A stretch of DNA of 62,847 nt, counting the filler, from Reclinomonas americana ATCC 50394 (Eukaryota), in the NCBI GenBank assembly GCA_048213135.1. It is 14 parts of 14 records of this genome, joined end to end, with 100 filler letters (N's around TTAATTAATTAA, not from the genome) between each part and the next. Parts side by side here need not be neighbours in the genome. Positions count along the whole stretch, not along the records: positions 4,826 to 12,566 come from AFZH01020659.1; positions 12,667 to 16,211 come from AFZH01020660.1; positions 16,312 to 29,121 come from AFZH01020661.1; positions 29,222 to 32,507 come from AFZH01020662.1; positions 32,608 to 41,852 come from AFZH01020663.1; positions 41,953 to 43,840 come from AFZH01020665.1; positions 43,941 to 49,553 come from AFZH01020666.1; positions 49,654 to 51,005 come from AFZH01020667.1; 6 more parts are not named here. The stretch is one strand, 5' to 3'. Below are positions 7,401 to 62,728 of the stretch, piece by piece; the stretch's first letter is position 1, and each line of letters opens with the position of its first letter. The notes below the pieces were generated by a model that was not told where the DNA came from, did not search any database, and saw only the letters and a program-made list of their open reading frames with translations. A program made the translations under genes and the position numbers.

Positions 7401-10400
7401 CACGATGTACGTCAGAGATATGGTGCAACACCACGCATAACCGATTGTGTGCACCTGACTGCGAACAGTTCTGCATCATGCACATGGCGATGTTGGAGAG
7501 TGTCGAATTGTACTTGCGCACGGTGGTTTGCCACTCAGGAACAATCAGAACCATCGGTTCCGGTTCATCCTGTACTCCCACTGCCGCACGGTAACTCTAC
7601 ATCGAGGAAATATAGACGCTCAGAGCTGAGAACAAACAAGAACGACAGTGCACATGCTGAGGATACTACCTGGATGCTAAAAGAATACACCTTGACCGGC
7701 GCCGATTGCTTGCCGTAATCATTGGTGGCGTTGATAATGGGCGCGCCCTTGAAACCCACCTATTCGTCCAGGGACATACTCTGGTGTCAAAACACAGCAT
7801 CGTCAAGGTATGAGACAACCATTCGACGGCGTACCTCCACGAGCGCGTAAAACAGGTCCTCCGAACCTGCAAAGCAAATATGTTGAGAACACAAAAACCA
7901 TCGCTGTCGCGTTGTCGACATTCTTCTCAACACAACATACCAGCATAACGCTTGGTGATGCCGTGTGGCAACATAACAAGCGGCGTGCTCAGTTCACTCG
8001 TGCTGTTCAAGTACGCCAACGACTCCACGGTCACTGCAACATGTGCCATCATGAGGCTGACGCAAGAGTGCACCCATGAGGGACACAAAGTCAGCAAGAC
8101 CGGCTCTCACCAGAGTACACTCCGCTCGTCGTCGAGGTCACTGCCGGATCAAGCTTCTGAGCACGCAAGGTGAATGACGGTGTATCGACTTCGACCGCGC
8201 CTTGCTTGCCCGTCTGCGCTCAGCCAACCCAATCATGGAGAGTCAGTGGCAGAATGACTCCTTGGCACACTGCATTCGCAACACACACCATGCTTGCTAC
8301 GGTACGATGAGCAATAGCGTTGATCACCGGCTCCAGCGTACACTGAATGGCAGCCATGTCCTCCACATCTGCCGACGGAAGCGCAAGCATGCCGGATACG
8401 GCTTCGGCGAACGACTGCAGAGGACAACCGCAGGAATTCTCAGCTATTGAAGTAAGTGGGGGTCAATCGTGCTCAACAACAAATGACCACAGAACTGTCA
8501 AGGCGCTAGCCGAAGTGTAGGTGGCCAAATTCTGCGCTACATTCTGCGCAGCCGCCGCTAGCGCTTGTCGCGAAGATTTCGTCTCTTCCACAGGCAGTGC
8601 AGAAGTCGCCTGCATGTATCGACACAGCCATGTGAGCAGCTGAAGCACAATCACTGACTGAAGAGGCAGCGAGGCGGCTCACGTTTGTGATGGAACTCAT
8701 CACGTTGGCAAATAACTGCACCCCGAGGCCCGAGTCGCCAATCTTGGTGCTTGCCAACTGGACGACCTCAGTCATTCGTTCGAGCGTGGACAGAGTGACA
8801 GCTAGCCACGCGCAAGTAAGTCCGCGGAGTGAATACCACTCCTGATAATTCATCCACAGCTGACGCAACATGAGGTAGACGAGCTGCTACTCGTCGAGTT
8901 GGAGAACGACGAAGAGGACTGCTGCGTCAAGATCGACACCGATGTGCTGACCGTGCTCAGTGCCGCCAGTGCACCACCTGACGTCTGCACAGGCATCAAC
9001 CACGAACGCAGAAAGATTGTGAATTTCACAGCGGACTGTGCGCGAGACTCTTTCTGCCGTTGATACGCGGCAAACGTACCGTGACGTTAGCTGAGGTTAC
9101 TGATGACAAAAGTGACGTGACAGTGGCTTGCGCCTGCATGGCGTCGGCGAACGCCTTGTGCGATAATTGCACTACAGTTGCAACCGACGTCCTTTGCACA
9201 GTCACAGTCCCGTATTAGTTAGAACATTAACAACGCCCGTTCGCATGCAGGCGACAAACACACACCTTGCACCCTCCGAATCTGTGGCAGTCACACCGAC
9301 GACGACAGCCTCTTGACCCACTGATCCCAAGAACTGAAGCAGGACGTTACTAACCGACGACGACGTGCCCGACGACAAGGCCAGCTGCAACACAACGGGT
9401 TGAGATGCACAGCAAGTCCTTATATTCCAGCAAACACACTTGCAGCCGCAACTGTTTGATTCGACGCTGAGTCCGTCAGGTAGAACGTGTAGGTGAGTGG
9501 TGCCGTGGAATCGGGGTCAACAAAGCCAGAAGCGCGGATCTCGAACATGGTCTCCAACTCAACACCCGACGTCGGTGTGCACATGATGGTACCGGCCACT
9601 GGCGGTGAATTCACCTCGACAACACCACGCGCCAGACCTGACAGCGCGTGCGGTGTAAGGACGGGCAGGCAACATACAGCTGCCATAAATAAACAAACCG
9701 AAACCCCAAGTCGGGTGCGAGACCCACACTTCGATCTGGTATGCGAAGCCCGGCTGGAATGAGTTGCTCGGAATCGACATGAAGCCAGTGGCTCCTGAAG
9801 ACCACGCAATCGCTGGAACAGAAACCGTTGGAGATCCTTGCCTGGAGATTCTACGACTGTGAGGGTTGATGCGAAGCAGACACACCATGGACACAGACGC
9901 ACCTATGTGTGTATAGCCCCCAGGCATACGATAGCACAGCCACGTCCGACGGAAGCATGCCTCTGGCCACAACATCCACCGTGAGTGGCATGGAGAGATC
10001 GAATTTGCTGGTGAGACTCCCCTGCACACACGTTGTTGTGATTAGTGAGCATTCCTGTGCATACCAACGCAGTCGGTAACCAACAAACGACAGCTAATGA
10101 CGCACTCGTACAAAGGCAAGACCGGTGCCGATGGTGACCGTCTGATTGCCGAATTCTGCAGAAGACTTAATAAGTCCGCGACTAACAGCACGGATGATGA
10201 CAGCAACCACACCTTGGAAAACAAACAGCGTCTGTACAAACTCGCCACCGAGACTGTCTCTCGCACGGATCCTAACTTCGTGCCCGCTTCCGGCCAAGTC
10301 GTCGGCATTGACGACCAAGCTGCTCTCGGTGACGTTAAACATGGTACCGGAGGCTCCACCCACCACCGCAAGAGTGTGCGACTGGCAGCAGTTGGCGTCG

Positions 10401-62014: not shown

Positions 62015-62728
62015 ATGGCAGCAGAGCAAGAGTTGACGTTTGCCAGTTGCGTCTCTCTCTTCCTCTCTCTCTCCACCTACAGCACTCCACACTCCACACC
62101 CGCCACCGCACTCACCACCACTCACAAACGTGGAGGTTGTCTCGCACATGGCCTGCACATTTCCACACTTGTCTCTCTCTCTCTCTGCCTCTCTCATTGT
62201 GCGTGAGTCTCACACACACACTCACTGTGCATTACACATACACACAGCGCGTAGCAAGAGCGGCTTCCAGCTCTTTCATGGCGTGCCCGAGTTCAAGTCC
62301 AACCCAGACAGCGAGTTGCGCTCACACTCACTCACATGACACACTCTTCTCTACTCACTCACCCACTCTCACTCACACACTACAGAGCCCGCGAATGCAC
62401 TCAATTTGTGTGCTCGGATGCCGGACAGCGCACCGCAATTTCGGCGCGCGGTGCCGCCGGTGTCACCGTGCTGAATGCGCTCACTGAGGAGGTGGTGCAG
62501 CTGTTGCCGGAGCCCGATGTGCAAGGTCGAATTTCCCATGAATGCGCAGTGACCGATTGATGCTGACTTTTTCTCTCCGTGGTCAGCCATGTGCTTCTCA
62601 CCAAAGGGCAACTACTTGACGACATGGCGACGTGTGCCACGACAGGGCGACGAGGAGAATGTGGCGCTGTGGGACTTGTCGACGGGCGAGGCGATTAAGC
62701 GATTGCGGTTGTTGGATTTGGCGCCGTG
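62015..62728 (+). CDS. EIF2A: Eukaryotic translation initiation factor eIF2A, first four exons (62015-62045, 62248-62314, 62386-62525, 62587-62728); runs off window
   Basis: Spliced MAAEQELTFATRSKSGFQLFHGVPEF...ECTQFVCSDAG...AMCFSPKGNYLTTW...ENVALWDLSTGEAIK...W matches the eIF2A N-terminal propeller pattern. Confidence 0.75.

Follow-up and report, generated by a model that had tools for sequence, protein, structure and literature searches.

A class of 5' splice sites with the donor core displaced by one base after exons ending in A, C or T in a draft genome stretch of Reclinomonas americana

Introns in a stretch of the draft assembly of Reclinomonas americana ATCC 50394 (GCA_048213135.1) appear to use two classes of 5' splice site (donor). 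The stretch analysed here, 62,847 nucleotides long and referred to as the window, had been interpreted before from its sequence, and this sequence-only reading listed 27 donors that begin with GTTGCG or a close variant and that never follow an exon ending in G. All 27 strings are present at the listed bases (25 GTTGCG, GTTTCG at 16703 and GTTACG at 31075), and the last exon base, position -1, is A in 15, C in 8 and T in 4 of them. The ordinary class of the window has the form A-A-G|GT-G-Y-G-T, with G at -1 in 71-78% and almost never G at +4. In the GTTGCG class the same core lies one base farther from the cut. This one-base offset of the donor core is real, and within the limits of sequence evidence the same holds for the class itself and for its link with exon ends other than G.

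A donor class and the last exon base

The hexamer GTTGCG itself is not over-represented in the window. It occurs 82 times on both strands, nine of these after G, and most copies are not donors. Introns were called with our own Viterbi gene finder, which uses two codon classes, intron length, branch point and acceptor, and to which rules for ATG, stop codons and contig edges and a masking of low-complexity sequence were added later. Its donor-blind form requires GT of a donor and nothing more, while a two-class donor model scores +3 to +8 and ignores the exon bases. The coding model initially used over the second half favoured CT-rich repeats and was replaced by masking and curated seed exons. 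For the best blind run the second codon class was seeded with hand-delimited exons, some of them at class donors, from which the codon counts alone were used. A self-trained full donor model was discarded; it drifted to the ACGAAG|GT of a repeat gene and fragmented the other genes.

The first blind run called 129 introns, 11 with GTTGCG donors, where 1.24 were expected from the share of this hexamer among all GT sites (p = 6e-8). With the ATG and stop constraints 140 introns were called, 12 of them with GTTGCG, and 14 of the 27 claimed sites were recovered. GTTGCG is the commonest donor hexamer of the best blind run (131 introns, 15 of the 27 claimed sites), with 17 cases where independence of the positions would predict 0.81 (p = 1e-17). 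An excess over what a single matrix would predict, proposed earlier as a test, is thus found in the window. Three further class members, at 4295, 9452 and 32809, came out of this run, as did a questionable one at 59115. The two-class model recovered 21 of the 27 claimed sites; among its 125 introns there are 26 class donors, made up of 24 GTTGCG, one GTTTCG and one GTTACG, and this share of 21% of introns agrees with the earlier estimate, which put it between a fifth and a quarter.

The class introns resemble the other introns of the window. Their median length is 69 nt compared with 73 nt, and a CTSAC-like motif and a YAG acceptor were found for each of them, as in ordinary U2-type introns; that all are GT...AG follows from the construction of the search. 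In the two-class model 21 of the 26 are not multiples of three, and retention would lead to a frame break or a stop in 23 of 26, compared with 85 of 99 other introns. Within 30 nt of 24 of 31 sites (the 27 claimed and four new ones) there is no ordinary GT that is both in frame and adequate. The other seven, at 60926, 59115, 13559, 39078, 43380, 4295 and 32809, have one. The minor-class (U12-type) donor motif has no likeness to GTTGCG. Like the class described here, U12-type introns have sharply defined donors and coexist with a major class, but a U12-type identity was rejected, the donors being GTTGCG and the branch points and lengths those of the ordinary class. An introner-like origin was also rejected, as the 27 donor contexts are, by eye, unlike one another from +8 onward.

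The class differs from the other donors in the base that precedes it. In the two-class model G stands at -1 of 1 of 26 class donors and of 70 of 99 others (Fisher p = 2e-10), in line with the proposed dependence on this base, and in the best blind run the corresponding figures are 0 of 17 and 60 of 114 (Fisher p = 1e-5). The difference persists in the two-class model when the paralogous repeat genes are left out (1/21 versus 35/61, Fisher p = 2e-5), and in these genes alone, by subtraction, it amounts to 0/5 versus 35/38 at homologous intron positions. The class accounts for 25 of 54 non-G donors and for 1 of 71 donors after G. It is over-represented in phase 2, with 11 of 22 introns; in this phase the second codon base stands at -1. 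The earlier statement that no G|GTTGCG is used holds for the 27 listed sites; however, the two-class model calls a sole G|GTTGCGT candidate at 5162 (5156..5162, minus strand) in a short low-confidence gene, and there the blind run takes the GT at 5157 instead.

Of the 99 other donors, 69 have a pyrimidine at +4 and 86 have G at +5. Over the whole window the ordinary consensus reads GT-R-Y-G-Y, and GTAAGT is rare, with 13 copies on both strands. This suggests a U1 small nuclear RNA (snRNA) with altered positions 5-6, or that something else than U1 reads the donor. The 161 copies of GTACGT and 423 of GTGTGT in the window are due to its microsatellite-rich contig ends. Ordinary-register donors after non-G number 29, and the earlier description of them as mostly GTRAGT is only partly right: seven are GTGAG, but six are GTTCGY. 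GTTCGY is a second recurrent donor after non-G (7098, 7214, 7466, 4129, 32267 and 60858), with T at +3 in the ordinary register. The shifted motif is not invariably found after a non-G exon end: A|GTGCGC at 18504, the lone donor of this form, and A|GTGAGA at 25589 are donors of the ordinary register, both at the domain-end position of the repeat gene on the minus strand. The observation that GTGCGT is never used after non-G (0/43 versus 5/17) was not relied on, since with G at -1 in 71% of ordinary donors 7 of 7 is unremarkable.

The register of the core was examined with a matrix of ordinary donors over -3 to -1 and +3 to +7, in which GT is unscored. At shift 0 the 27 claimed sites have a median score of -7.28 (maximum -4.67), compared with 2.97 for 86 ordinary donors, and at shift +1 the medians are +3.81 (minimum 1.39) and -4.67. 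The claimed sites fail at all other shifts, so that all 27 fit at +1 only, as expected if the core is shared and the cut has moved by one base. Because the hexamer defines the class, a fair test of the register is confined to the free positions. Position +7 is T in 18 of 27 claimed sites and in 9 of 52 non-donor GTTGCG copies, and a score over the real -2, -1, +7 and +8 bases separates the two groups (Mann-Whitney p = 1e-4). The A found at -1 in 15 of the 27 sites corresponds to the A at -2 of ordinary donors, the base that would pair with U10 of U1. Other shifted cores follow non-G once each: GTTACG, GTTTCG, GTTGTG (48331) and GTTGAG (8477).

Independent support for the cut positions

Seven sites are fixed by independent evidence, which for five of them is the end of paralogous exons and for the other two the Pfam profile of UvrD; an eighth is supported in part. 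Conservation had been invoked before for RPB4, eIF2A, UvrD, TAF2 and cadherin exons. It stands for UvrD and for the five sites in the repeat genes and in part for RPB4, whereas the eIF2A and cadherin labels and the conservation at the TAF2 sites could not be confirmed. Gene identities come from Pfam scans exon by exon; a six-frame Pfam scan of the first 13 kb gave little.

The five paralogous sites lie in an Ig-like repeat region (12.8-29.1 kb, minus strand). The 46 one-domain exons start with NVAPTDI and end with FTINE, the internal ones are all phase 1-1, and their modal length is 285 nt (18 exons). The exons closed by the class donors at 13559, 14984, 16703, 17427 and 21344 end at the same column as about 40 paralogous exons that are closed by the ordinary ACGAAG|GT. 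Exons ending in G have a split codon for V or A, whereas at the class donors this codon gives I, L or T, as fits a cut before the G rather than after it. All five were found donor-blind, on the minus strand. A|GTTGCGT at 13559 (intron 13480..13559) closes a 282-nt exon at the column of the paralogues, and the variant A|GTTTCGT at 16703 (16629..16703) closes an exon with the paralogue-like end ...TLTLNE. Exons of the modal 285 nt are closed by T|GTTGCGT at 17427 (17358..17427), in phase 1, and by A|GTTGCGT at 21344 (21261..21344), with the end ...FIINE. At 14984 (A|GTTGCGT, 14938..14984) the donor has the paralogous exon end, while the acceptor is uncertain and may in truth lie further on, the next exon being 321 nt long.

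In the UvrD-like helicase gene (53.5-54.6 kb, plus strand) the exon before the C|GTTGCGT donor at 53642 (intron 53642..53708, found donor-blind) covers positions 59-98 of PF00580 and the exon after it positions 102-202, with no gap in the profile. The T|GTTGCGT donor at 54019 (54019..54143, two-class model) together with the acceptor at 54143 gives 2 + 1 + 18 = 21 residues, which fill the 21 PF00580 positions 203-223, and the exon two further on covers 224-248. The rival donor chosen by the blind model, at 54046, would add nine residues to this stretch. Thus, cleavage at the GU, and not at the junction that the shifted register implies, fits both the profile spacing in UvrD and the exon lengths and phase 1 of the repeat genes.

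The RPB4 gene (35.7-36.6 kb, plus strand) has two class donors, both found donor-blind. The exon closed by C|GTTGCGC at 35941 (35941..36391, an intron of 451 nt) matches through residues 3-26, up to its last residue, positions 61-84 of the RPB4 chain 5flm_D; the E-value is about 1, and all four matches are RPB4. The exon after this intron matches PF03874 67-116 and residues 93-133 of the RPB4 chain. The RPB4 alignments thus partly support the predicted donor at 35941. For the exon closed by C|GTTGCGT at 35781 (35781..35859) no RPB4 match was found in the PDB.

Remaining sites and the window

The window is a chained piece of a draft eukaryotic assembly, with a G+C content of 54% and 14 contigs. 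These are separated by 13 identical joints, N44-TTAATTAATTAA-N44 (4726-4825, 12567-12666, 16212-16311 and ten more), which carry a linker with stops in six frames; the contig order may be scaffold-based or arbitrary. Contig ends often run into microsatellites of the (GTAC)n, (CT)n and (GT)n types. The introns are short (55-95 nt in most cases) and have a CTSAC-like branch point and a YAG acceptor. An Rfam scan of the window gave no matches, and no snRNA gene was found in it.

On the minus strand, the REJ-domain gene (6.9-12.6 kb) contains T|GTTGCGT at 8869 (8802..8869, 68 nt, found donor-blind) and the additional A|GTTGCGG at 9452 (9385..9452), which every blind run returned and whose preceding exon matches positions 317-357 of the REJ family PF02010. 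A further additional donor, T|GTTGCGT at 4295 (4231..4295, minus strand), was found donor-blind in a low-confidence gene and has its ordinary in-frame GT 24 nt downstream. The variant A|GTTACGA at 31075 (31075..31164, plus strand) was also found donor-blind.

The WD40 gene (about 32.6-34 kb, minus strand) contains T|GTTGCGT at 33048 (32988..33048), which was called by the two-class model only; the blind run prefers a GT at 33060, 12 nt upstream in frame. T|GTTGCGT at 32809 (32738..32809), one of the additional sites, was found donor-blind, with an ordinary in-frame GT 21 nt downstream. The claimed C|GTTGCGT at 33656 (33650..33656, minus strand) was not recovered; by eye a stop-free in-frame intron of 63 nt is possible there, and the homologues are too weak to test this donor. 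A WD40 exon gave 15 weak matches among protein representatives (best E = 1.4e-8), to long WD40 proteins, the best of them with 1,300-1,600 residues. The gene at 33049-33591 (minus strand), which had been labelled eIF2A, shows weak generic WD40 matches and no match to the eIF2A family. A search for longer homologous proteins with the WD40 exon and the UvrD exon gave no match.

The TAF2 gene (TPR_TAF2_C; 38.3-41.7 kb, minus strand) was identified by Pfam on single exons, and the exon-wise scan gave no Pfam match for those of its exons that adjoin class donors. Four donors in this interval were found donor-blind: A|GTTGCGC at 38833 (38766..38833), A|GTTGCGA at 39078 (39004..39078), with an alternative in-frame GT 18 nt downstream, A|GTTGCGT at 39215 (39158..39215) and C|GTTGCGC at 40632 (40574..40632). 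A|GTTGCGA at 39666 (39605..39666) was called by the two-class model only. Two claimed donors were not recovered. At C|GTTGCGT 39902 (39896..39902) the model has one intron of 278 nt that skips a putative 144-nt exon, and the frame is kept in both readings. For A|GTTGCGT at 38354 (38348..38354), in the 3' part of the gene, no acceptor was found, and a G-rich repeat follows the claimed donor. G-rich repeats of the GGGGAAGGG type, at 38200-38345 on the minus strand and at about 43800-43840, lie after this donor and at a contig end.

Further along, A|GTTGCGT at 43380 (43322..43380, minus strand; ordinary in-frame GT 27 nt upstream), C|GTTGCGT at 47188 (47092..47188, minus strand) and C|GTTGCGT at 58869 (58869..58932, plus strand) were called by the two-class model only. 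The doubtful C|GTTGCG at 59115 (59115..59121, plus strand), called by the best blind run and by the two-class model, has a strong in-frame G|GTGAGTC 6 nt downstream. Exon-wise Pfam scans gave no match for 59.6-62.8 kb. Within this plus-strand stretch A|GTTGCGC at 62315 (62315..62385) was found donor-blind, and three claimed donors were not recovered: A|GTTGCGC at 60338 (60338..60344), where there is neither a gene model nor a Pfam match, A|GTTGCGA at 60926 (60926..60932), whose first G is in the model the last base of the AG acceptor of an intron at 60858-60926, and A|GTTGCGT at 62046 (62046..62052).

The repeat region itself (12853-29121, minus strand) consists of one or two very long genes with at least 46 tandem exons, each of them encoding one Ig-like domain of about 95 residues between phase 1-1 introns. 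Pfam gives only sub-threshold matches to Big_9, He_PIG and cadherin-like families for these domains, and the Ig or cadherin-like matches of single exons leave the cadherin label unconfirmed. A metagenome scan with an alignment of the domain found 16 loci, the closest relatives at 35-51% identity, all of them intronless same-frame arrays with a period of 300 nt. These were accordingly ruled out as intron-bearing relatives of the repeat genes. Their contigs have G+C contents of 32-37%, 51% or 59-67% and look bacterial; the likeness may reflect a shared domain family or an old transfer.

How the displaced core may be read

The reading that we favour, and that we regard as about evenly balanced, is that these are ordinary short U2-type GT-AG introns in which the UGCGU core lies one base farther from the cut and is read by U1 and U6 through the shared heptamer. 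The donor would then take the form H|GUUGCGU (H being A, C or U) in place of G|GUGCGU. The same reader, the U1 5' end and later U6, would bind the heptamer G-K-U-G-C-G-U always in the same alignment. At shifted donors the +1 G of the intron would replace the -1 G of the exon opposite C9 of U1, the +2 U would be a mismatch opposite C8, and the later spliceosome would still cut at the GU. The class could then be a selected solution for exon ends that coding keeps from G. We infer that U1 is the reader and that its register is shifted rather than bulged. When a U1 end complementary to the real local consensus donor is modelled with RNAduplex, the class pairs with a mean of -6.7 kcal/mol, compared with -8.7 for ordinary donors after G and -4.2 for those after non-G, and 26 of 26 class donors take the shifted, mismatched form. 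A more far-reaching version is tentative: the +1-shifted register may be regular and selected in this lineage, serving about one fifth of introns and nearly half of those where the exon cannot end in G, with a U1 altered at two positions, which elsewhere in eukaryotes are pseudouridines, so as to read GCGU, with the G-C9 pairing outweighing C8, and with a U6 that accepts one extra base.

Several results weigh against this. Modelling of both registers, as had been suggested, favours the shifted one with the hypothetical complementary U1, but the standard U1 end hardly pairs: the class mean is -1.1 kcal/mol, in scattered registers with +1 in 10 of 26, compared with -6.7 for ordinary donors after G and -2.9 after non-G. 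Reading by U1 therefore needs an altered U1, or else GCGU has another reader. Judged by duplex stability H|GUGCGU is at least equal to the shifted form, yet among the 54 non-G donors GTGCGT is found 0 times and GTTGCG 23 times. This hints that a G opposite C9 outweighs plain duplex energy, or that the choice is settled at a later step. Micromonas and Thecamonas, which have similar +4 C donors, are reported to have a standard U1 in the accessible part of bioRxiv 10.1101/2022.06.08.495308, so that U1 pairing is possibly not what reads GCGU. The class, with GCG in 24 of 26 members, is far more uniform than the ordinary class. Counted per occurrence, GTTGCG is used in 0 of 9 cases after G and in 17 of 73 after non-G, which is not significant (p = 0.19) because GGTTGCG is scarce in the window. 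Finally, the gene models are our own and perform weakly over the second half of the window, and no run recovered six of the 27 claimed sites (60338, 60926, 62046, 33656, 38354 and 39902).

These last points, together with the seven of 31 sites that have an adequate ordinary alternative nearby, would also be expected if many of the sites were not donors and the pattern came from bias in picking introns by hand or by model. We consider such an artefact very improbable, as donor-blind predictions still put GTTGCG first, seven sites are fixed by paralogy or by a Pfam profile, and the length of 21 of 26 class introns is not divisible by three. A duplex that extends into the exon is a feature of U1, and the preference for A and the exclusion of G at -1 fit such a duplex. 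They speak against an offset that is set only after U1, with U6, U5 or proteins like Prp8 reading the core, an active site that tolerates the extra U, and a minor part for U1 pairing. The poor pairing of the standard U1 end with both classes at +4 C is in its favour, as is the standard U1 kept by organisms that share this type of motif (bioRxiv 10.1101/2022.06.08.495308, in part); nevertheless, we take it to be decidedly unlikely.

A bulged register would leave U1 in its ordinary place at +1 and +2, with one U of +2/+3 bulging out and GCGU pairing as +3 to +6. Its pair count equals that of the shifted register, and a bulge at +2/+3 is listed for 68 human sites in the part of PMC4856993 available to us. 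The human sites of this kind also start with GUU followed by the consensus core, as here. However, such a register should favour G at -1, which is found in 0 of the 27 claimed and 1 of the 26 modelled sites, and the complementary U1 prefers the mismatch over the bulge in all 26; a bulge is thus quite unlikely. The sharp uniformity of the class and its distance from the ordinary one could also point to a separate reader dedicated to this class, either a variant U1 snRNA or some other factor, whose recognition sequence fits GUUGCG in the ordinary register. The same preprint, as far as it was accessible, mentions that Physarum has both standard and modified U1 variants and that the U1 ends of Entamoeba and Mastigamoeba are changed. 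An unrelated reader, however, would fit the ordinary core moved by one base only by coincidence, and we consider a second reader unlikely; the window does not speak for it directly either, as the Rfam scan found no snRNA gene there.

The shifted register that we favour has precedents, for which the cited sources were available in part. It is an experimentally described mode in human cells, where noncanonical registers together make up 1.5-2.1% of sites (PMC4856993). The human shifted sites of Roca and Krainer (via PMC4856993) likewise fit the consensus one base downstream, have their +1 G in the pairing place of the -1 G and are cut at the GU. They are a rare class with the core AAGU, whereas here about 21% of introns are concerned, the core is GCGU and U1 pairing comes from modelling only. 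In Mamiellophyceae the donor consensus is AG|GTGCGT and the branch point NCTGAC (PMC3879977, PMC2483917), much like the ordinary class, the CTSAC-like branch point and the short introns described here, but these accounts, in the parts available, describe no shifted GTTGCG class, and the present window is intron-rich. The co-evolved U1 5' ends of Entamoeba (ACAAAC) and of Mastigamoeba (ACGUAC, with GUGCGC donors; bioRxiv 10.1101/2022.06.08.495308) set a precedent for a U1 change that matches an atypical donor with a pyrimidine at +4; here such a U1 is needed in the modelling for good pairing of either class. Judged by titles and the openings of abstracts, supplements aside, we found no GTTGCG donor class and no lineage-wide shifted class described in the literature, and a passage of a tunicate paper on the shifted register describes no lineage-wide class either.

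Shifted and bulged U1 registers have so far concerned a small share of human splice sites and disease alleles. If the reading proposed here is true, a genome that uses a shifted register for a fifth of its introns would be a natural experiment, with a bearing on how the place of U1 binding is uncoupled from the place of cleavage, on which U1 positions are indispensable, and on the joint evolution of donor motifs and snRNAs. In practical terms, about one in five introns of this organism would be missed or wrongly placed by a gene finder that relies on one donor matrix, because all 27 sites score at or below -4.67 with the ordinary matrix.

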